Positions 12,902 through 24,257 of a stretch of DNA of 64,000 nucleotides are shown piece after piece. Source of the stretch: Candidatus Poribacteria bacterium (GTDB lineage: Bacteria; Poribacteria; WGA-4E; WGA-3G). Below the pieces are notes generated by a model, which saw only the letters and a program-made list of their open reading frames with translations, ran no database searches and was not told the DNA's origin. Position numbers and translations under genes: made by a program. Every line of letters starts with the position of its first letter. The first letter of the stretch is position 1. Location: positions 3,360,001 through 3,424,000 of the forward strand of contig OZ251518.1 in NCBI GenBank assembly GCA_965242965.1, in the 5' to 3' direction.

Positions 12902-13072
12902 TTTACGTTATGCGATGCTTGCATAAAATTGAGACTGAACCCGGCAAGTTTTTTGTCGTAGAAATTGTTGTTTGTTTTCGGCCCGTTTAGAAACACACTA
13001 AAAATCACTACGCCTCCTTTTCTGGCAGGTGTCTGTGCCCGCCTTCGCGCACCGGACAGGAGAAGAATCTAC

Positions 13073-16000
13073 GTGAAAACACGCAAAACTTTCGCCAAAA
13101 CAGACGTTCGCACCCCTTTACCGAATTTGATTGAGACGCAGCAGCGTGCCTACGATGCCTTTTTGCAGCGTGAGACGTTCCCGCGCCAAGACAGCGGCCT
13201 GGAGGCAGTCTTCCGAGAAGTCTTTCCTATCACTGACTTCAACGAAGTCTCGCGCCTCGAATTCGTCCACTACCAGCTTGGCGAACCGAAATGGACGCTT
13301 GACGAATGCCTCGCCCGCGGTGTCACTTACCAGGTATCCCTCACCGCGCGTCTCCGCCTCGTCGTTTGTGAGAAAAACGCGGCGGACGAAGAACCGCACG
13401 TCGTCGATATCCGCGAGTCCGATGTCTTTCTCGGCGAAGTCCCGCTGATGACAGAAAACGCCAGCTTCATCATCAACGGCAGCGAACGCGTCATCGTGAA
13501 CCAGCTGCACCGCTCACCCGGTGTCATCTTCCTTGAGAAGAAACTTCCGAGCGGACACCGCTCACCCACGGCGCAAATCATCCCTTACCGCGGGGCATGG
13601 ATAGAATTTGAATCGGACTCTAAAGATACGCTTTACGTCCGGTTAAACAAACGTCGAAAGATACCTGCCACCGTCTTCATCCGCGCACTCGGATGGCAGA
13701 CGGATGCAGACATATTGAAACTGTTCGCTGAACCGACGCGCATGATGCTCTCGGGGTGGCGCGTCACAAAAGTGATACTCCCCGAATGCCCACGCCAAAT
13801 CGGTGAACTTTTAACCGCGAAGGAACATCGAGAGTTGGATGACGACTACCCGGGCATGGAAGCTGAAAAACTCTACGAAGTCGTCTCCGTTCCTGACGAT
13901 GCCGAATGCCCTGTTGCTGTCGGCCAGAGGCTCACGGAAACTGAATGGAAGTCCCGCAAAACGCGAAAAGACATCACCTTTGAACGCGTCTGGCGTATCA
14001 CCAAGCATTACCGGCACGACATCCCTTACGCCATCGGCGACATCGTTTCCGATGCAGATTATCGGAAGGCACGGAAGGATTACCCCGGTATTGAGGTAGA
14101 ACCGCACTATCGCGTCACGGCTGTCACAGACAAAGGGTGCCCGCTGGAAGAAGGACAGATGCTGACACTCAGGCAGCGCGCCAGCGAACGTCGGAAGTGG
14201 AAAGGGTTCACCACCGAACGACTCCTACGCATCACGAATATTCTCAATACCGGATGCCCCTTGAATGTCGGCCAGCACCTCTCGTCTACTGAATACACCG
14301 AAATGCTCGGCAGGTATTCTGACGCTTTCAAGGCAGTCGAGATTGAACCGACAGACATCAACGAAACCATTGGTAGTGTCTGCGCTGAACCTATCGCCGA
14401 CCCGAGGACTGACGAACAGTTGGTGACAGCGAATACGCTCCTCACCGAAGCAGAAGTCACACGGCTGCGGGATGCCGGCGTGGAGACGCTCACGGTGTTG
14501 ACACCCGAATCCGCCAAAGCTCTCCGCTTTTTACGGAATACCCTCGAACGCGACAAAGAGGCGGACTACGAGGAGGACATCCGTGCTCGCGGACGGCAGA
14601 GCGAAACGCCAATTCAGGATGTCGCCCTGCTCAAAATCCACTCTGTCCTCAGACCGGGGGAACCTGCTAGTATTGAGGCAGCGCGCCGGCAACTTGAATG
14701 GCACTTCTTCGACGCACCCCGTTATGACTTGGGGACTGTTGGACGCTACAAAGTGAACCAAAAACTGGGACACCTCTCCATATACGGTGAACAGCCCGAT
14801 GAGAAACAGCGCACGTTGCGTCCAGAGGACATCGCGGCGACACTCCGGCATCTGATTGATGTCCAAAATGATCCTGCGTTAACAGACGACTTGGATCATC
14901 TCAGTAATCGTCGTGTGCGCGGCATCGGCGAATTATTGGAGAACCAGTTCCGCATCGGCTTATTCCAGATGCGGCGTGCCACGCGTGAACGCATCTCCTC
15001 CGCCGATATGAGCAACTGTATGCCGCCAATGCTGATTAATCCGAAGCCGCTCATGGTATCGCTGCGCGAGTTCTTCGGTTCAAACCAACTCTCGCAGTTT
15101 ATGCAGCAGGTAAACCCGCTGGACGAATTGACGCACAAGCGGCGCATTTCCGCCATCGGCCCCGGTGGTTTATCGCGCGATAGAGCCACCGCTGCCGTTC
15201 GCGATGTGCATCACACGCACTACGGACGTGTCTGTCCGTTGGAAACACCTGAAGGCCCCTCTATCGGCCTCCTCGTCTCACTTGCGTGTTATGCGCGTAT
15301 CAATCCTTACGGTTTCATTGAGACACCGTACCGCAGAGTGGTGCCCGGCAAGTCTATGGTTGAAACGCAAATTGAATACCTCACCGCCGATAAGGAAGAC
15401 AGAGCCCACATCGCCGCCAAAACCATCCCTCGCGAGATGACACCGGGCGCGAAGCTGGACACGGGTATCCAGCTGCCTGTCCGAAAAGGCGAAGAGGTGC
15501 TGTCCTTGCCCCTGTCCGAGGTAGACTACGTCGGCATCTCGCCATCGCAGATTGTCGGCGTATCCGCGGCTCTCGTGCCCTTTTTAGAGCATGAAGACGC
15601 GAACCGCGCGCTCATGGGCGCGAACCACCAGCGACAAGCCGTGCCGCTTATCACGCCGGAAGCACCGCTCGTCGGCACCGGCATGGAGGCACGCGTCGCA
15701 CAGGACTCAGGGGCATTGTGCATCGCGAAGCGGAGCGGCACCGTCGAAAGCGTCTCCGCCGAAGATATCATCATCCATACCGATGAAACACTTCACGCAG
15801 ATGTCAGTGAACAACACAAGAGTGAGATGGGGTACGACCGGTACGAACTCCACACCTTCAAACGGAGCAACAACGGCACGTGCATCCATCAGCGGCCCAT
15901 CGTCTCTGTCGGCGATAAAGTGGCAGCCGGTGATGTCGTCGCCGATGGGACTTCTACCGATGAAGGCGAACTCGCACTCGGCAGGAACGTTCTCTGCGCC

Positions 16001-17599
16001 TATATGCCGTGGGGCGGACACAACTATGAGGACTCTATCCTCATCAGCGACAGGCTCGTCCAAGATGCCACCTTCAGCTCGATTCATATTGAGGAATTTG
16101 AGGTAGAGGCGCGGGAAACGAAAATGGGACCGGAGGAAATTACGCGCGATATTCCGGATGTTGGTCAACAGCGACTCGCGCAACTCGACGAAGAAGGAAT
16201 CATCCGCGTCGGAAGCCTTGTCAGCGCAGGGAGCATCCTCGTCGGCAAAATTTCACCCAAAGGCGAGAGTGAATACGGACCGGAGGAGAAACTCCTGCAC
16301 ACTATCTTCGGTGAAAAGGTGCGCGAAGTCCGAGACGCATCCGCCTATGTCAAACCGGGCATTGAAGGTGTCGTGATTGATGTCAAAGTCTTCTCACGAA
16401 AACAAGAACCAAGCCGACACTCGCTGCAAAGCTTCGCTGACGCAGACCAGCTCCGTTACGATGCTAAGAAGAAGGAGATAGAGGAGAAGTTCCACGAACA
16501 TCTCCAGGCTATCCGCCGCCGCCGAGACGAAGAAATTCGGAACGCTCTCATCGACTGCGAATTGGCACAGCCGATTTTTAGAGGGGCCACCCCTGAAGCA
16601 ACCGTCGGGCGCGCAGACGAGTTGGACGAGATCGGGGCAGTCCTGGCAGAGAGCGGCGACACCGTGACACACGAACTCCTGCACACACCCGGCGTTGCGC
16701 TCAACGAGATTTACGTCGTTGAATCAAACGTCATGGCATACATCCAGCGCGTTCAAGAAATCGCCGATGAGCGCATCGCCGCCTATACCGAAGAAAAATC
16801 AAGTTCGCTCGAACGGATGGAACTCGGTGACGAACTGAAACCCGGCGTGCTTAAACTGGTGAAAGTCTTTGTCGCAACGACGCGCCATATCTCCATCGGC
16901 GATAAGATGGCGGGCCGCTATGGCAACAAAGGCGTGGTAGCAGAGATTCTGCCCAAAGAGGATATGCCGTATCTCCCCGATGGAACGCCTGTGGACATCG
17001 TGCTGAACCCCCTCGGCGTGCCATCCCGCATGAACGTCGGGCAAATTCTTGAGATTCACCTCGGCTGGGCGTGCCATGCATTGGGCATCCATGTTGAGTC
17101 GCCTGTCTTTGATGGCGCGACAGAGGACGAAATCTTCGAGATGCTCGCCAAGACAGATTTGCCGGAACGCAGCAAGGAGACAGGAAAAAGCATCCTTTAC
17201 GATGGCAGAACCGGGGAAGCGTTCGGACAGGAAGTCACCGTGGGCCATGTCTACTTCCTCAAACTGAACCATCTCGTCGCCGACAAAATGCACGCCCGTT
17301 CTACCGGCCCCTACTCGCTTGTGACGCAGCAGCCGTTGGGCGGCAAGGCGCAACACGGCGGACAGCGGCTCGGCGAGATGGAGGTGTGGGCATTAGAGGC
17401 ATACGGTGCCGCGCACACCTTACAAGAGATGCTCACGCTCAAATCCGATGATTTCATGGGCAGAGCCAAAATTTATGAGTCGGTAGTGAAGGGGCTCAAC
17501 CCCGAATCCCCCGGCACACCCGAGTCTTTCAACGTTCTCGTGCGCGAACTGCAGGGCCTCGGGCTCAGCGTTTCCCTGAATCCGCCTGAAGAAGAATAG
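13073..17599 (+). CDS. rpoB: DNA-directed RNA polymerase subunit beta, with 5-repeat insertion
   Basis: FIINGSERVIVNQLHRSPG, RDVHHTHYGRVCPLETPEGP, NRALMGAN, GDKMAGRYGNKG, HARSTGPYSLVTQQPLGGKAQ, GEMEVWALEAYGA; GTG start after AGGAG. Confidence 0.98.
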   Translation: MKTRKTFAKTDVRTPLPNLIETQQRAYDAFLQRETFPRQDSGLEAVFREVFPITDFNEVSRLEFVHYQLGEPKWTLDECLARGVTYQVSLTARLRLVVCEKNAADEEPHVVDIRESDVFLGEVPLMTENASFIINGSERVIVNQLHRSPGVIFLEKKLPSGHRSPTAQIIPYRGAWIEFESDSKDTLYVRLNKRRKIPATVFIRALGWQTDADILKLFAEPTRMMLSGWRVTKVILPECPRQIGELLTAKEHRELDDDYPGMEAEKLYEVVSVPDDAECPVAVGQRLTETEWKSRKTRKDITFERVWRITKHYRHDIPYAIGDIVSDADYRKARKDYPGIEVEPHYRVTAVTDKGCPLEEGQMLTLRQRASERRKWKGFTTERLLRITNILNTGCPLNVGQHLSSTEYTEMLGRYSDAFKAVEIEPTDINETIGSVCAEPIADPRTDEQLVTANTLLTEAEVTRLRDAGVETLTVLTPESAKALRFLRNTLERDKEADYEEDIRARGRQSETPIQDVALLKIHSVLRPGEPASIEAARRQLEWHFFDAPRYDLGTVGRYKVNQKLGHLSIYGEQPDEKQRTLRPEDIAATLRHLIDVQNDPALTDDLDHLSNRRVRGIGELLENQFRIGLFQMRRATRERISSADMSNCMPPMLINPKPLMVSLREFFGSNQLSQFMQQVNPLDELTHKRRISAIGPGGLSRDRATAAVRDVHHTHYGRVCPLETPEGPSIGLLVSLACYARINPYGFIETPYRRVVPGKSMVETQIEYLTADKEDRAHIAAKTIPREMTPGAKLDTGIQLPVRKGEEVLSLPLSEVDYVGISPSQIVGVSAALVPFLEHEDANRALMGANHQRQAVPLITPEAPLVGTGMEARVAQDSGALCIAKRSGTVESVSAEDIIIHTDETLHADVSEQHKSEMGYDRYELHTFKRSNNGTCIHQRPIVSVGDKVAAGDVVADGTSTDEGELALGRNVLCAYMPWGGHNYEDSILISDRLVQDATFSSIHIEEFEVEARETKMGPEEITRDIPDVGQQRLAQLDEEGIIRVGSLVSAGSILVGKISPKGESEYGPEEKLLHTIFGEKVREVRDASAYVKPGIEGVVIDVKVFSRKQEPSRHSLQSFADADQLRYDAKKKEIEEKFHEHLQAIRRRRDEEIRNALIDCELAQPIFRGATPEATVGRADELDEIGAVLAESGDTVTHELLHTPGVALNEIYVVESNVMAYIQRVQEIADERIAAYTEEKSSSLERMELGDELKPGVLKLVKVFVATTRHISIGDKMAGRYGNKGVVAEILPKEDMPYLPDGTPVDIVLNPLGVPSRMNVGQILEIHLGWACHALGIHVESPVFDGATEDEIFEMLAKTDLPERSKETGKSILYDGRTGEAFGQEVTVGHVYFLKLNHLVADKMHARSTGPYSLVTQQPLGGKAQHGGQRLGEMEVWALEAYGAAHTLQEMLTLKSDDFMGRAKIYESVVKGLNPESPGTPESFNVLVRELQGLGLSVSLNPPEEE

Positions 17600-17696
17600 C
17601 ATCCTTAGCCACGGCACATAGGGTGAGGGCGAGGGCCTGTCCCTCGCCGTGCCGCGGGTTAAGCACACATCCGAATCCATAGGAGAAAAATCCACA

Positions 17697-20600
17697 ATGG
17701 CAACCCCATTTGACAGTATCTCCCTCAAAATCGCTTCGCCGGAGGAAATCAAAGAGTTGGCGAAGCGCACCTGCTGCAAACGCAGAAGCAGCACCGTCGG
17801 CCACGGCGAACCCTTCATCTGCCCAGAAATGCACACCTGCAACTGCGGCGAGGTAAAGAAGGCCGAGACGATTAACTACCGCTCCTTCCGTCCCGAACTC
17901 GAGGGCCTCTTCTGTGAGGCAATTTTCGGGCCGTCCAAAGACTGGGAGTGTAACTGCGGCAAATATAAACGGATTAAGCACAAAGGTGTTATCTGCGACC
18001 GGTGCGGCGTGGAAGTCACGCGCCAGCACGTCCGCAGGGAACGGATGGGCTACATCCAACTCGCATCCCCTGTCTCGCATATCTGGTTCTTCAAGGGTGT
18101 CCCATCGCGCATCGGCGCGTTCTGCGAACTCTCCGCACGGCAGATTGAGAACATCCTCTATTTTGATGCGTTCATGGTGACTGAAGCCGACGAGGAACTT
18201 CAAGAACAAGGCATCATGAAGCCGAACCAACTCATCAGCGAGGCAGAATTCGACCGCTACAAACGCGAATACCGCGGCCGATTTAAGGCAGGTGCCGGTG
18301 GCCAGATACTTGCCAAACGCCTCGCGAGCCTGGACTTGGAAGCAGAGTGCGCGAAAATTGTCAAGGAACTCGAGGAAACGCGCAGCCATCAGAAAAAGGT
18401 GAAACTCACCAAGCAACTCCGACTGATGGAAGACTTTATCAGTTCCGGACAGCGGCCCGAATGGATGATTCTGGATGTGCTGCCTGTCATCCCGCCGGAT
18501 TTGCGTCCCCTCGTCACCTTAGATGGCGGCCGGTTCGCCACCAGCGATTTGAACGATTTGTACCGGCGGCTCATCCATCGGAATAATCGCCTCGCTAAAC
18601 TCATCAAGATGCGCTCTCCCGAAGTCATCTTGCGCAACGAGAAACGGATGCTGCAAGAAGCCGTTGACGCATTCTTTGATAACGGCCGGCACGGCAGACG
18701 CGTGACAGGGCCCGGCAATCGCGAACTCAAATCCCTCTCGCACGTTCTCAAAGGGAAAGTCGGACGGTTCCGTCAGAACCTGCTCGGCAAACGCGTTGAC
18801 TACTCCGGCCGCAGCGTCATCGTCGTCGGCCCGGAACTGGGGATACACCAGTGCGGCATTCCAAAACAGATGGCGGTGGAGTTGTTCAAGCCGTTTATCA
18901 TTGAACGGCTGCAAGCGCATGGCTACAGCGGCACTATCAAACGCGCTAAGGCTTATGTCGAACATATTGACTCTAACAGCCCCGTGTGGGAAGTCTTGGA
19001 AGAAGTCATCGAAGAACATCCGGTGTTGCTCAACCGGCCACCGACACTGCACCGGCTCGGTATTCAGGCGTTCATGCCTGTGTTGGTAGAAGGAAAATCT
19101 ATCAGAATTCCGCCACTTGTCTGTAAAGCGTTTAACGCCGATTTTGATGGAGACCAGATGGCGGTGCATGTGCCGTTAACCGCTGAGGCACAGGCAGAAG
19201 CGAAACTGCTGATGCTCAGCAGCCATAACATCTTGAAGCCATCGCACGGTGGCCCGATTGCCGTTCCCGAACTGGATATGGTGCTTGGGCCGAGTTACCT
19301 GACGAAGACGCTGCCAGAGCACGATGCAGACGCGCAGCTGCTCCACAAGGTTTATACCACCCAAAACGGCGATGCAACGTTACTCGATGAGATTCGCAGG
19401 AAGCCGTGGTATCACCGCCGCTATGCGCATATGGAGGAAGTCATCGCCGCACACGGTGCCGGGCAGCTCAAACTGCACGACAGCGTCCAACTGTTTTTTC
19501 CGGAAAACGGCGCGCCGCGCGAACCGATTCTCACCACCGTCGGCCGAGTGATTTTTAACGAAGTGCTGCCAGCCGAATTGAAGTGGGTGGACGCGCACTC
19601 TGGACAGCGACTTCCGTTTTTCAATGGGGAAGCAGGTGGGAGGCAGCTCTCGGCAATCGTTGAAACCTGTTTCAACACTCCCGAACTCGGCACGCGGGGG
19701 ACTGTAGCACTGCTGGAGAAACTTCAAAAACTCGCGTTTGAATATGCAACGTTGAGCGGCATTTCGCCCGGCATTATTGATTATATCACACCTTCGCAGC
19801 GGGAAGGACTGTTGGCGAAGACAGAGGCAGCTATTGCCAAACTCCGCGCCGCCGCCGCCGCAGATGCCGATACGGAAGAACTCGAGAACCAGCAAATCCA
19901 CTTGTGGTACCAAGCACTGCGAGAGATGGAAAACATCATGTTTTCCAGACTCCCGGAATTGGAAACCCAACTCGTTGAACGGGGTGAAGATGTCAAAGGG
20001 TTCAGTCCGGTGCATATCATGGCGGATAGTGGGGCGCGGGCGCGGAAAAATCCGTTCATGCAAATCAGTGCCGTTATCGGGCTGAAGGCGAAGCAGAGCG
20101 GCGAAATTCTGCTACCACCGATTACCACCTCCTATCGCGACGGGTTAGACGTGATTGACTACTTCAACTCCACCTACGGTTCCCGAAAAGGCTTGGTGGA
20201 TACGGCAATGAAGACAGCGGCATCGGGTTACCTGACGCGGAAACTCGTTGATGTCGCGCAAGACGTGCGCGTCACCGAAGCGGATTGCGGCACGGTCAAC
20301 GGCATCAAAAAATTTGCCACGGAAGGCGGCGAACTCGCTTTTAAAATCAACGGACGCACCGCGACAGAGGATATCCTACATCCCAATACCGGTGAAGTGC
20401 TTGTCAAAGCGGATGAACTCATTTCAGCCGAAGCAGCGGCACTGATTGAAAAGAGTGAGATAAAAAGCGTCAACGTCCGTTCCGTGCTCACCTGCGCAAC
20501 CGAAGACGGTGTCTGCGCCAAATGCTACGGACACGATTTGACGACGAACATGCTTGTCAGTGTCGGTGAAGCTGTAGGTATCATTGCCGCGCAATCCATT

Positions 20601-23600
20601 GGCGAACCCGGCACGCAGCTCACGATGCGGACATTCCACACTGGGGGTGCAGTGGAGGAAGTCTCCGATGCACGCCAGCGTCAAATCCGAGCAAAAGCGA
20701 GTGGCACTGTGAGGTTCCGGGATTTCCATCCCGGCATCACTGTCCACCAAGAGGGCACTCTCTGGATATCCACAGGGCCGGGTAATGCCCCGCTAGGAAA
20801 TCCCCCGAGTGCCAGCGCGGATGCGGAAGATGAAACGCAACGAAAGACCGGGAACCGAGCGAATTTGGACGCGCCTACCTACAAAGTCACGCGCGTCATT
20901 CACGCCGATTGCAAATTACGGAAAGACGAATTGCTCAACGAAAAGCAGTATTCCGAAAACGCGCAGCGTTACAAAGGCTTTGAGACAGTTCCATGGCAGC
21001 ACCGCGTCACCGCTGTTCACGATGATGCCTGTCCCGTGAAAGAGGGCGACAGACTTTCCGCCGCGCAGTGGCGGGAAGCCATAAGTGCATACGGCTTCCC
21101 GCGCTTTGCAACCGAGAAGCGCGAGATAACACACGTCCGCCTATCTACTGTGAACGTTCAACCCGACGATGTGCTCACCGAAGAAGAAATTGAGCAGCGC
21201 GAAGCGGAAATTCGGAACCGATTTGACGGCGAATGGTGCTACCGTATCCCCAAAACCGGCGAGATTTTCAAGTCGGCTCAAGACTTTTTGCCCGGCTTGG
21301 GCATCCCTGTGGAGCCCCTTGAAGATATTGAGGATACAGAAATGCTAGGCGACACGTCAGCTGAAACGGCGGAAGACCTGGCTTCTGCGGAAACATCACT
21401 AGCGAAAGACACCTCTTTTGAACGCGTCTACCGCATCACCGAGCGGACAGATCGGGATTTCCCGTATGCTGTCGGGGATATCGTGGCAGCGGAGGAGATT
21501 GAGCCGTGGCTCACGCCTTTTGAGGCGGCACCGAACCCTGTCTATGTTATTGATGCAAACGCGCCCTGGCATGCAGGCGAAACGTTGACACGCTACCAAT
21601 ACGAGGAAGTGTGTCGCGACTATCGGCCGTTTGAATCCGAAAAAGCGGCGGAGGTGCTGCACCACGTTACGGCAGTGCATCATCCCAAATGCCCGCTCAA
21701 ACCGGGTCAAGATTTGACAGAAGCAGATAAAAACGCTATGCTCGCTCGCTGGTCTGGGTTTGACGTTGAGAGGCTGCGGCACCGTGTAACGCACATCTAT
21801 CATCCGGGTTTTCCACACACACCGGGCTATTTGATGAGCGATGCGGAGGCGAAACGGCTGGGGAGTAAACATCCTGGCTTTGAGACAGAAACATCTCCTG
21901 TCTTTGCAGCGCAATTGGTGATATGGGAGGACGAAGAAGCGGAATCGTCTGATAAAGCGAAACCTATCAAGCCCTATTGCGTGACAGGGATTCATCACCG
22001 CGACTGCCCCCTGGAGGCCGGGGACCTTTTCACTCCCAAGGAGGTAACTGCACAACGCAGGAAATTCCCAGGGTTTGATGTTGAACGCTTCTACGTGATC
22101 CCCAGGGAAAACATCTACGAGGTAACCGAAACTAAGCGAGCCTTTACCGCAAAAGCGTTAGCGGGTTCCAAGAAGAGTTGGCGCATTACTGAAGTGCTTC
22201 ATCCGGCGTGTCAACTTGAAGTTGGCAAGATAGTTTCCGATGCCACGTATAAAAAGACTCGCAAGACCTATCCTAGCACTAATCAAGGGCAGCTCATAAC
22301 GCAGACAGCATTTGAAACATGGGGGGGATCCTTAGCAGCCACGCAAGTGTCTCCGGAGCCTGAGCAGTTTCTCCATCGGGTAACCGAAGCTAAGCCAGCC
22401 TTCACCGCAGAAGCGTCGCCGGAAGCAGAAACGTCGCGAGAATCAGACAGGACCTGGCGCGTCACCGAAGTGTTCAATACAGCATGTCCTTATGAGGTCG
22501 GACAAGAAATCTCCGATGTCGAGTATCGACGAGGCCAAGAGGAATATGGTGATACTCGCGGAGACTTCCTGACGCAGATGGAGTTGGAACACCGGAACGC
22601 CCTCACGACTCAACCTGTTCTGCAACTCTCTGAAACGGAGTTCAAGGTCCTTCGCAAAACGGATCCGACGCTCAAGGATAGGGTGATTACCTCCCGATAC
22701 CGCGTTGTGGACACCTATCACCCAGAGTTCCCCTTTAAAGTCGGCGAGGTCCTGACAGATAAAGATTACAAGCAGTGCCAGAAAGACTTCAGAGGGTTCG
22801 ATGTTGAACATTTCTACGAGGTTACCGCAGACGAACGTGAATTCGTGGAGAGCAGCCCTCAGGAAGCGGAAACCCAACTCATTTCAGACCTCACCGTAGA
22901 GGGGCCGCACTATCGGCACGACGTTGAACCCTCTCCGGTAGCGACATTTGAGAAGCCGCGTCTCAAGAAATTTTGGCGGGTTAATGCAGTCTCCAACCCA
23001 GAGTGTCCGCTGGAGGTTGGTCAAAATCTCTCCGAGGGCGAATATCTGGCGGCACGCGAGACATACAAGGTAATTACCGAAAAACAGAACCCTGATTCAC
23101 GTTTCCTTGAAGGTGATATCCTTGTCCTCTCCGAGCGGGAATACAACGCGCTCATGAAAGGCCATAGGCAAGAAGCTCCGCACACCGTTACCGCCGTGCA
23201 TCACCCAAATTGTCCACTTCAGGTTGGAGCCAAATTGAGCAAAGCGGAATACGAGGGTTTGAGTGCTCACTACCCCGGGTTTGATACCGACGAACCCGCA
23301 CTGCGGATGCATATTGAGATAGAGACTGCGGATGGACATCGGGTGCCGCATCTTATCACGGAAGGTTACTCCTTCTCCATCAAGGAGGGCGATCCCGTCA
23401 AAGTGGAAGACACTCTCGCCGAGCTCCATGAAAAGACAGCGAACATGGATATCGTCGCCGGGATTCCGCGTGTGACAGATCTCTTTGAGGCGCGCCGTCC
23501 TAAACGTGAGGACGCGGCGGAAATCGCCGAGATTGAGGGACGCATTGAGGCAGCAGGCACCAAAGCCGGTGTGCCGACATACCGTATCGTTGATGAGGAA

Positions 23601-24257
23601 CACCAGAGCCGCCTCTACGCCATTCCTGACGAAAAACGGCGCGTCACCGAAGGCGACCGGGTAAAGGCAGGACAACCGCTCACGGACGGTTACCTCAACC
23701 CGCACGATATCCTCAGCATCGGGCGCGTCTTCATTGAAGATGTGCCAATTGATGGTGATGAAGCACTCTGGACATACCTCGTTGAGGAAATCCAAAAGGT
23801 TTACGGTGCACGCGCCATCAACGACAAGCACCTCGAAGCCATCGTCCGCCAGATGACGAGGAAGGTGCGGGTGATAGCACCCGGCGATACGCAGTTTCCC
23901 CATAACAGTGAGGTGCCGCGACAGAAATTCAATGAAGTCAACGCGAAGGTTATTGCTGAAGACGGTAAACCCGCTACCGGCGAACCGATTCTGCAAGGCA
24001 TTAGCCGCGCATCGCTCAGTACCGACAGCTTCATCTCTGCCGCCTCGTTCCAGCAGACGACGAAGGTGCTGACAGATGCCGCTGTCAAAGGGCAGAAAGA
24101 CAAACTCTTCGGATTGAAGGAGAACGTCATCCTCGGTCGCCTCATCCCTGCAGGAAGTGGACTTTCGGATTTCCAGCATTTGGAAATCACGGAAGTTGAC
24201 GCTGACGAAGAGATGGAAGCACCGGAATCCGCCGAGTCATCGTCTGCGGTGCCATAA
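17697..24257 (+). CDS. rpoC: DNA-directed RNA polymerase subunit beta' (~2186 aa; very large trigger-loop insertion)
   Basis: Zn-finger C-C-C-C, GRFRQNLLGKRVDYSGRSV, NADFDGD, GEPGTQLTMRTFHTGG, SAASFQQT, GLKENVILGRLIPAG. Confidence 0.98.
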   Translation: MATPFDSISLKIASPEEIKELAKRTCCKRRSSTVGHGEPFICPEMHTCNCGEVKKAETINYRSFRPELEGLFCEAIFGPSKDWECNCGKYKRIKHKGVICDRCGVEVTRQHVRRERMGYIQLASPVSHIWFFKGVPSRIGAFCELSARQIENILYFDAFMVTEADEELQEQGIMKPNQLISEAEFDRYKREYRGRFKAGAGGQILAKRLASLDLEAECAKIVKELEETRSHQKKVKLTKQLRLMEDFISSGQRPEWMILDVLPVIPPDLRPLVTLDGGRFATSDLNDLYRRLIHRNNRLAKLIKMRSPEVILRNEKRMLQEAVDAFFDNGRHGRRVTGPGNRELKSLSHVLKGKVGRFRQNLLGKRVDYSGRSVIVVGPELGIHQCGIPKQMAVELFKPFIIERLQAHGYSGTIKRAKAYVEHIDSNSPVWEVLEEVIEEHPVLLNRPPTLHRLGIQAFMPVLVEGKSIRIPPLVCKAFNADFDGDQMAVHVPLTAEAQAEAKLLMLSSHNILKPSHGGPIAVPELDMVLGPSYLTKTLPEHDADAQLLHKVYTTQNGDATLLDEIRRKPWYHRRYAHMEEVIAAHGAGQLKLHDSVQLFFPENGAPREPILTTVGRVIFNEVLPAELKWVDAHSGQRLPFFNGEAGGRQLSAIVETCFNTPELGTRGTVALLEKLQKLAFEYATLSGISPGIIDYITPSQREGLLAKTEAAIAKLRAAAAADADTEELENQQIHLWYQALREMENIMFSRLPELETQLVERGEDVKGFSPVHIMADSGARARKNPFMQISAVIGLKAKQSGEILLPPITTSYRDGLDVIDYFNSTYGSRKGLVDTAMKTAASGYLTRKLVDVAQDVRVTEADCGTVNGIKKFATEGGELAFKINGRTATEDILHPNTGEVLVKADELISAEAAALIEKSEIKSVNVRSVLTCATEDGVCAKCYGHDLTTNMLVSVGEAVGIIAAQSIGEPGTQLTMRTFHTGGAVEEVSDARQRQIRAKASGTVRFRDFHPGITVHQEGTLWISTGPGNAPLGNPPSASADAEDETQRKTGNRANLDAPTYKVTRVIHADCKLRKDELLNEKQYSENAQRYKGFETVPWQHRVTAVHDDACPVKEGDRLSAAQWREAISAYGFPRFATEKREITHVRLSTVNVQPDDVLTEEEIEQREAEIRNRFDGEWCYRIPKTGEIFKSAQDFLPGLGIPVEPLEDIEDTEMLGDTSAETAEDLASAETSLAKDTSFERVYRITERTDRDFPYAVGDIVAAEEIEPWLTPFEAAPNPVYVIDANAPWHAGETLTRYQYEEVCRDYRPFESEKAAEVLHHVTAVHHPKCPLKPGQDLTEADKNAMLARWSGFDVERLRHRVTHIYHPGFPHTPGYLMSDAEAKRLGSKHPGFETETSPVFAAQLVIWEDEEAESSDKAKPIKPYCVTGIHHRDCPLEAGDLFTPKEVTAQRRKFPGFDVERFYVIPRENIYEVTETKRAFTAKALAGSKKSWRITEVLHPACQLEVGKIVSDATYKKTRKTYPSTNQGQLITQTAFETWGGSLAATQVSPEPEQFLHRVTEAKPAFTAEASPEAETSRESDRTWRVTEVFNTACPYEVGQEISDVEYRRGQEEYGDTRGDFLTQMELEHRNALTTQPVLQLSETEFKVLRKTDPTLKDRVITSRYRVVDTYHPEFPFKVGEVLTDKDYKQCQKDFRGFDVEHFYEVTADEREFVESSPQEAETQLISDLTVEGPHYRHDVEPSPVATFEKPRLKKFWRVNAVSNPECPLEVGQNLSEGEYLAARETYKVITEKQNPDSRFLEGDILVLSEREYNALMKGHRQEAPHTVTAVHHPNCPLQVGAKLSKAEYEGLSAHYPGFDTDEPALRMHIEIETADGHRVPHLITEGYSFSIKEGDPVKVEDTLAELHEKTANMDIVAGIPRVTDLFEARRPKREDAAEIAEIEGRIEAAGTKAGVPTYRIVDEEHQSRLYAIPDEKRRVTEGDRVKAGQPLTDGYLNPHDILSIGRVFIEDVPIDGDEALWTYLVEEIQKVYGARAINDKHLEAIVRQMTRKVRVIAPGDTQFPHNSEVPRQKFNEVNAKVIAEDGKPATGEPILQGISRASLSTDSFISAASFQQTTKVLTDAAVKGQKDKLFGLKENVILGRLIPAGSGLSDFQHLEITEVDADEEMEAPESAESSSAVP

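Follow-up and report, generated by a model that had tools for sequence, protein, structure and literature searches.

The growth of bacterial RNA polymerase (RNAP) by lineage-specific inserts has been credited to two recurring modules, BEAN/BBM2 in the beta subunit and HABAS/SBHM in beta'. Alvarez-Carreno et al. (2024, PMC11515920) describe such inserts as BEAN in beta and mostly HABAS in beta', and equate the BBM2 of beta-i4 and beta-i5 with BEAN and SBHM with HABAS; BBM2 is also reported to have entered beta four times independently and beta' twice (PMC1586193). The former authors recognize in addition two homologous small domains of beta', bD2 and bD7 (CATH 3.30.60.280), which they name sLC or "small left claw," a term that our literature search met only in that paper and its preprint. 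According to their account a few beta' variants have extra inserted sLC domains, and these lie only within bD2, bD4, bD5 and bD7 of beta', in lineages with no more than three representatives (Firmicutes and a Deinococcus-Thermus/Synergistetes/Thermotogae group). Here we analyze a 64,000 nucleotide (nt) stretch of a Candidatus Poribacteria bacterium genome (the window; assembly GCA_965242965.1, contig OZ251518.1, positions 3,360,001 to 3,424,000), in which rpoB and rpoC lie side by side on the + strand and both encode long extra regions composed of a repeat unit of about 39 amino acids (aa). We think it very probable that the native domain bD2 was copied into surface loops of beta and beta' and multiplied in tandem in the ancestor of one family, leaving at least 17 units here. 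If so, this enzyme grew mainly by copying a third module, one that came from its own core and is encoded a few kilobases off in the same operon.

The proposed source of the repeat is the stretch from 18171 to 18296 (+ strand), which encodes RpoC aa 175–216, translates to FMVTEADEELQEQGIMKPNQLISEAEFDRYKREYRGRFKAGA and immediately follows ILYFDA; the earlier note on this DNA had quoted the sequence after ILYF exactly as it translates. The segment lies inside the Pfam RNA_pol_Rpb1_1 match at RpoC aa 60–378 and aligns with E. coli beta' 141–189 and 144–173 and with the native segments of relatives, which is the position expected of bD2, given as residues 139–177 or 142–181 in PMC11515920. It encodes the native beta' clamp domain bD2, a strand-loop-strand-helix unit of about 40 residues that all bacteria have. 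The Firmicute pattern that the earlier note gave for other bacteria agrees with the B. subtilis beta' chain (6wvj_D, 136–163), which reads VTDPaNTPLEKKQLLSEKEYRAYLDKYG.

The consensus of the repeat unit over 250 instances, from the window's genome and its relatives, is YRVTAVHHPDCPLKVGELLTEAEYKEARRRYKGFD. In the two window proteins Pfam recovers the expected Rpb2 and Rpb1 families but, apart from a sub-threshold T4_MRH match, no curated family in the extra regions (RpoB aa ~260–460 and RpoC aa ~1050–1890). When the whole 5.7-Mb genome was searched in six frames with the unit profile (57,628 open reading frames of at least 50 aa), 17 units were found at an independent E-value (iE) below 1e-3, all of them in these two proteins (five in RpoB, 12 in RpoC). 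Degenerate units are also visible between the clear ones, so that the earlier estimate of about 18 copies was a fair one; the accompanying statement that they occupy two insertion sites is too narrow, as relatives have more than two (see below).

The RpoB array (13757–14344, + strand, aa 265–460) stands at the beta-i4 site of the lobe. Its five units start at 13757, 13874, 13991, 14108 and 14225, strictly in tandem with a period of 117 nt, and score 21–41 bits with a hidden Markov model (HMM) of the unit. Its 3' end adjoins a single, ordinary BBM2/BEAN unit (14348–14500, + strand, RpoB aa 462–512), identified by its secondary structure, a conserved TGE motif and alignment with unit b of E. coli beta-i4; in the sister families this unit is the sole insert at the site. 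The RpoC array (20880–23303, + strand, aa 1078–1885) lies in the trigger-loop insert (the beta'-i6 or SI3 site), between the trigger-loop halves TFHTGG and DIVAGIPRVTDLFEAR, and maps into E. coli beta' 962–1084. Its 12 clear units, found by HMM, start at 20880, 21000, 21429, 21543, 21660, 21780, 21975, 22179, 22455, 22698, 22974 and 23181, and degenerate units and linkers make up the rest. We call the family of the window's genome (G000) f1, with genera g1 to g6, and two repeat-free sister families f2 and f3; among 41 related genomes the RpoC frames of f2 and f3 are about 1410–1445 aa long, and those of f1 (24 genomes) about 1870–2300 aa, compared to 1,407 aa in E. coli.

Homology of the repeat to bD2 is best seen with an HMM trained on repeat units alone, for which residues 1–320 of each RpoC were masked. 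This HMM matches the native segment of all eight g5 RpoCs, of the one g3 RpoC (34.4 bits) and of the one g6 RpoC (27.0 bits), overall at 27–34 bits, and a seed HMM of 11 window units already matches that of the eight g5 proteins at 19–29 bits. In each of nine f2 and f3 RpoCs the native segment is matched as well (24.4–33.3 bits, iE 5e-6 to 8e-9) and is the sole significant match in the protein; the segment of these families, for example FIVLEVSDPNCPLKVKQLLTEEEYNEHLSQFPDGFRVG, nearly matches the unit consensus. Unit profile A2, run over whole outgroup genomes in six frames, gave exactly one match in four of five, in the N-terminal part of rpoC with per-genome E of 2e-9 to 2e-7, and none in the f4 outgroup genome. 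Comparison of alignments with hhalign gave a 98.8% probability (E 7.2e-17; reversed control P 0.69) between the repeat and the native segments, and in a full-length RpoC alignment whose master sequence was that of E. coli the repeat fell on beta' 144–173 (93.7%, E 1.8e-7). The match is also reciprocal, in that an HMM of nine repeat-free native segments finds the last beta-i4 unit of the RpoB of G009 (28.6 bits, iE 3e-7) and aa 1780–1801 of the window RpoC (iE 0.0031). The last RpoB unit of the window, which ends LSSTEYTEMLGRYSDAFKA at aa 439–457 just as the earlier note quoted it, is matched by the native-only HMM over aa 426–457 (iE 0.0022), and is the most native-like unit in the window. The native and BBM2 profiles used here are small (about 24–33 sequences plus E. 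coli), because the N-terminal homologue search gave close relatives only and no diverse beta' set.

Outside this group, the unit profile was compared with 177,635 distinct PDB sequences. The four best matches are beta' of B. subtilis (E 0.015, residues 136–163), of C. difficile and of F. tularensis (two entries), and Thermus beta' follows next; all fall at the bD2 segment, and no single match in this search is below E 0.001.

Predicted structure agrees with these matches. AlphaFold models of three units (window RpoB aa 342–461, 34-row alignment) and of the whole beta-i4 region (aa 236–575) have mean confidence (pLDDT) values of 86.6 and 85.2, and DSSP assigns to each unit a long strand, a loop of 11–13 residues that contains CPL, a strand of 2–3 residues and a helix of 10 residues. 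The predicted unit superposes on E. coli beta' 143–182 with a root-mean-square deviation (rmsd) of 1.8 Å over 40 residues. The Foldseek list against the PDB is headed mostly by bacterial beta' chains, the best local match being 9gdp_D (39 columns, rmsd 1.2 Å, 33% identity), and in an unbiased fold search of 48,161 chains the top four are all beta', the fourth being 5uh7_B. No beta chain is present in the top 50 of three fold searches. In the models the long strand of each unit continues from the preceding unit, and since neighboring units thus share one strand, the arrays probably form stiff rods at the surface. No catalytic motif is present in the units, whose best-conserved positions are hydrophobic or structural. 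We considered metal binding by the conserved Cys together with His-His and set it aside: C makes up 64% of the column and F, L, T or I the remainder, as a buried hydrophobic position would show.

We scanned 151 genomes of the phylum at E ≤ 1e-6. Matches are present in 97 of 99 genomes of family f1 and, in addition to these, in the window's genome, at 6–18 per genome, in all 10 of f2 and in 23 of 26 of f3, where each genome has one. The arrays occur in family f1 alone. Within it, units are found in the trigger-loop insert (SI3) of beta' in all genera and in beta at about E. coli position 228–245 in g1, g3, g4 and g5; further sites in relatives are at about 600 in beta (G015, L037 RpoB aa 576–1024), at about 980–995 in beta, the beta-i9 region (g5, L036/L038 RpoB aa ~1113–1469), and at about 850 in beta' (G003, L030 RpoC aa ~888–1307). 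Among 1.84 billion representative proteins, 44 were found with the unit profile at E ≤ 0.001, and for 34 of these, largely fragments, BLAST gives a match to the RpoB or RpoC of this group.

Several results weigh against a bD2 origin and must be set beside those above. In the window itself the likeness that the earlier note had drawn between the repeat and the segment at 18171–18296 does not rise above chance: that segment scores −1.9 to 7.6 bits (iE 0.3, 0.95 and 11 genome-wide), and genome-wide it ranks below six random open reading frames. Judged by sequence within this genome alone, then, the two are not statistically separable from chance resemblance. The repeat-only HMM is weak on the other g1 and g4 native segments (7–11 bits), on all five g2 RpoCs (6.5–12.8 bits) and on both f4 RpoCs (6–13 bits), so that f4 matches are weak or none, and none of the 15 genomes of f4 to f9 has a match in the scan, which for f4 counts against a bD2 origin. 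The position of the single match was checked in four of the 33 f2 and f3 genomes. None of 102 single units matches Pfam RNA_pol_Rpb1_1 at E ≤ 10, and Pfam as a whole gives them only scattered one-off weak matches, so that the check proposed in the earlier note is negative at this sensitivity; Foldseek against the PDB gives nothing at E ≤ 0.001; and VIA-align, which picks out two places in beta', scores one near the C-terminus (E. coli 1263–1306) at 5.1–5.3, above bD2 at 4.2–4.4. E. coli beta' itself scores 4.2 bits with the repeat-only HMM, at the correct place.

From such values one might suppose that the whole resemblance is one of chance between short, compositionally similar strand-helix peptides. 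The chance-level match in the window's genome fits that idea, and so do the 10 of 44 database proteins that are unrelated to RpoB and RpoC; nine of those are other repeat-domain proteins and one is without a Pfam family, and their scores are sums of weak stretches. Against it, the single native domain is found at E 1e-7 to 1e-9 per whole genome and always at the same place, reversed controls are flat, the reciprocal match exists and the predicted fold agrees. We regard chance as an extremely improbable explanation, and common descent of the repeat and bD2 as the preferred one.

The higher of the two VIA-align places is bD7, and the two places together are the sLC domains of PMC11515920 (bD7 being 1255–1298 in its type 4). 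The window has its own bD7 at 23865–24002 (+ strand, RpoC aa 2073–2118), with the same small fold, and it could be asked whether the repeats derive from this domain near the beta' C-terminus instead of from 18171–18296. In predicted fold the unit matches both solved domains, and because bD7 scores slightly above bD2, structure alone does not pick the source; sequence does. The bD7 domain has no match in any HMM search, and hhalign of the repeat against a bD7 alignment of 32 RpoCs gives 0.5% (P 0.12), while bD2 and the units have in common the pattern CPL..GQ.L[ST]E.EY......[YF]P.GF. By sequence, then, the source is bD2, and descent from bD7 seems very improbable to us.

The location of the RpoB array raises another alternative, namely that the repeats are shortened BBM2/BEAN units and that their likeness to bD2 is secondary. 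The array is at beta-i4, just ahead of the ordinary BBM2/BEAN unit, and beta-i4 has been predicted to hold BBM2 in one to six tandem copies (PMC2939025). The repeat and BBM2 have a strand-helix-strand core in common; hhalign of the repeat against 24 BBM2/BEAN units (of this order and E. coli, a shallow set) gives 29.9% with P 5.6e-4 over 20 columns (reversed P 0.33), and the best place of the repeat in the RpoB alignment, although non-significant, is BBM2b (E. coli beta 311–327). The authors of PMC11515920 took hhalign values above 70% as their threshold for homology, and the repeat matches bD2 better than it matches BBM2 by more than ten orders of magnitude. The native alignment itself gives 5% against BBM2 (P 0.0075; reversed controls P 0.1–0.3). 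The repeat HMM leaves E. coli RpoB and all 11 RpoBs from the outgroup without a match, and no beta chain is found among the 60 listed of 90 PDB sequence matches with E ≤ 10, any more than in the top 50s of the fold searches. The unit has 39 aa and one helix and lacks the two bracket elements of BBM2/BEAN (alpha1-beta2-beta3 and beta4-beta5-alpha6; PMC11515920). The unit consensus also lacks the TGD/E motif of RNAP-beta BEAN, as its G (84%) is followed by E, D or Q but preceded by V, P, E, I or A, not T; the true BEAN unit next to the array has TGE/TDE. Finally, BBM2/BEAN and sLC are placed in different CATH superfamilies, 3.90.105.10 and 3.30.60.280 respectively (PMC11515920). A very distant link between the repeat and BBM2 over the strand-helix core is possible, but that the repeats are shortened BBM2 units appears improbable.

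We conclude that the repeat, as the earlier note had supposed, is homologous to the native beta' segment and distinct from BBM2. The note's observation is partly confirmed, in that its sequence is correct but the likeness is not significant in the window alone, and its interpretation is supported.

At the DNA level, Tandem Repeats Finder and a DNA repeat search show no periodic array of 117 nt, only short patches, so the copies are old and diverged. One such patch concerns the RpoC array (window 22107–22472), where 22121–22158 and 22379–22416 are 89% identical at a spacing of 258 nt and 22179–22196 and 22455–22472 are 89% identical at a spacing of 276 nt. Here two units were duplicated in tandem as one block at a more recent date (aa ~1482–1567 and 1568–1653), which shows that tandem growth continued. 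A second patch joins the two genes: 40 nt at the junction of RpoB units 2 and 3 (13967–14006) are 83% identical to 40 nt of the RpoC array (21405–21444, before the aa-1261 unit). The peptides there are KDITFERVWRITK and KDTSFERVYRITE, followed in both arrays by matching PYA[IV]GDIV. The shared patch hints at copying between the genes, and since RpoB and RpoC units are also intermixed in nearest-neighbor scores, copies appear to have moved between rpoB and rpoC.

The direction of copying, from native domain to repeat, follows from distribution, because the domain is bacteria-wide and the arrays are confined to one family; the order proposed in the earlier note thus holds. The reverse has been weighed, either as a reversed direction of transfer or as gene conversion that overwrote the native segment with repeat sequence in some relatives. 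The native segment does vary inside f1, being very repeat-like in g3, g5 and g6 and poorly so in g1, g2 and g4, and the 40-nt patch indicates that copies do exchange. Yet f2 and f3 genomes without repeats anywhere have a repeat-like native segment, and the beta' subunits of B. subtilis, C. difficile, Francisella and Thermus have the core pattern in common, so we consider both versions to be very improbable and retain bD2 as donor.

The domain at 18171–18296 has itself changed. In the window's own bD2 the CPL hairpin (18183–18230, RpoC aa 179–194) is substituted by EADEELQEQGIMKPN, the hairpin found in genera g1 and g4, which is three residues longer and lacks CPL, and in family f4 the same hairpin has 15–25 extra residues. 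The donor domain went on evolving after the copies arose.

By this account an ectopic copy of the bD2 coding stretch would have been made by illegitimate recombination in the common ancestor of the family, and unequal crossing-over or slippage would then have multiplied the copies in tandem. Because rpoB and rpoC are adjacent, the native copy lies 3.8–4.4 kb from the RpoB array and 2.6 kb from the RpoC array, and with the donor within 2.6–4.4 kb of both targets, ectopic copying followed by unequal crossing-over or slippage is the simplest route. The lobe and the trigger-loop insert are mobile and lie on either side of the downstream-DNA channel, and rods on them would most likely add mass and surface to both; by analogy with other large SI3 inserts, such as those of cyanobacteria, they might alter trigger-loop dynamics, tune pausing or elongation, or offer contacts and docking surfaces. 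Homology, restricted distribution, direction and predicted unit fold are shown by the analysis, and the route of origin, function and effect are inferred.

The two gene limits call for brief comment. The longest rpoC frame, 17649–24257 (+ strand), has 2202 aa and a GTG start, and the likely start is the ATG at 17697, which gives 2186 aa, because database protein P0004 (2186 aa), 100% identical to the window RpoC, starts there (MATPFDS); the stretch 17649–17696 is probably overshoot before the real start. The longest rpoB frame, 12965–17599 (+ strand), has 1544 aa and a TTG start; it probably overshoots also, with the true start downstream of the TTG (12965–13090 stretch).

Several observations in relatives touch on the same proteins. 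In the beta' of some, the trigger-loop insert contains a restriction-endonuclease-like domain (Pfam PF18741, REase_MTES_1575): P0005 aa 1386–1477, P0097 aa 1123–1225, P0021 aa 1328–1421 and the fragment P0130 score 47.6–78 bits against a cut-off of 38.2. The carriers include proteins 98% identical to the window RpoC in the N-terminal region; the Pfam scan finds no PF18741 match in the window RpoC itself. It is unusual for an RNA polymerase to contain a nuclease-like fold. The RpoB of G028 (L021) has three tandem ordinary BEAN/BBM2 units at beta-i4, and in the RpoC of G036 (L022) the middle of bD7 is interrupted by an insert, about 100 aa long and BEAN-like in sequence. A second, shorter RpoC-like frame of 1040–1108 aa is present in several genomes (G020:C1:367865-370984; G032, G038, G034, G040, G028, G037, G029, G031, G035, G026). 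That of G020 is 52% identical over query aa 20–709, and those of f2 and f3 genomes match only around aa 380–557 (36–41%). Such frames may encode a paralogous subunit of the polymerase or belong to a mobile element.

The unit profile also finds two non-polymerase proteins, which are among the 34 database proteins noted above. P0132 (938 aa) and P0133 (837 aa) have C-terminal tetratricopeptide (TPR) repeats and, in the middle part, 3–4 units (33–46 bits), and this middle part and the g5 RpoB insert are 31–37% identical. Neither protein has a full-length counterpart in 41 related genomes; they are either escapes of the module or assembly chimeras. A bolder extension of the bD2 origin would make sLC a third self-propagating RNAP module beside BEAN and HABAS, one that colonized at least five sites in both large subunits of one Poribacteria family as rod-like arrays (~1,000 residues added) and also escaped into non-polymerase proteins (two TPR protein clusters). 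On this view the array of the lobe and that of the trigger loop, which are opposite one another across the downstream-DNA channel, may join by way of their identical units into a lineage-specific gate or arch over the DNA. We offer this as a speculation that is rather unlikely to be right as a whole.

The donor, its copies and repeat-free sister groups are all at hand here, which makes this an unusually clean case in which to date and dissect domain accretion in an essential enzyme. Inserts in the trigger loop and in the lobe are known to change pausing and initiation, and the arrays at these sites may therefore mark a distinct mode of transcription control in slow-growing sponge symbionts. 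Our literature searches found no paper that describes such arrays, and "Poribacteria" occurs 0 times in the text and spreadsheet supplement of PMC11515920. The sLC domain and polymerase-derived insert modules are already in print; the tandem sLC arrays, the entry of sLC into beta and this lineage are not, as far as our searches show.

Among known systems, the sLC domains are the closest, since the segment at 18171–18296 is bD2 itself and the repeat matches the bD2 profile and the fold of both bD2 and bD7. The difference from the sLC inserts of PMC11515920 is that tandem arrays are found here, of five and at least 12 units in the window and with 6–18 strong matches per genome in the family, and that they enter beta too, as well as the trigger-loop insert, whereas the extra sLC domains described in that paper are in beta' only. 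BBM2/BEAN resembles the repeat as a small module that has repeatedly entered RNAP and can stand in tandem, and in its weak strand-helix profile likeness; it differs in having twice the size, two bracket elements and the TGD/E motif, and it gives no significant HMM or PDB-sequence match to the repeat and none among the listed fold matches. The SBHM/HABAS arrays of SI3, with two copies in E. coli and nine in cyanobacteria, occupy the same trigger-loop site as the RpoC array and follow the same principle, by which a domain taken from the polymerase is multiplied to build a large surface structure moving together with the trigger loop (PMC11515920, PMC10895346, PMC10120043). They are, however, beta sandwich-barrels, to which the two strands and one helix of the 39-aa unit do not fit, and no SBHM entry is among the listed fold matches; here the units were added to an SI3 that is already E. 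coli-like in size in the sister families. Lastly, two lineage-specific inserts lie inside bD2, one in actinobacterial beta' (crystal entry 5uh7) and the other the type 2 BEAN insert, and they show that this domain is exposed at the surface and tolerates change; there bD2 receives foreign inserts, and in the Poribacteria family described here it is the donor.

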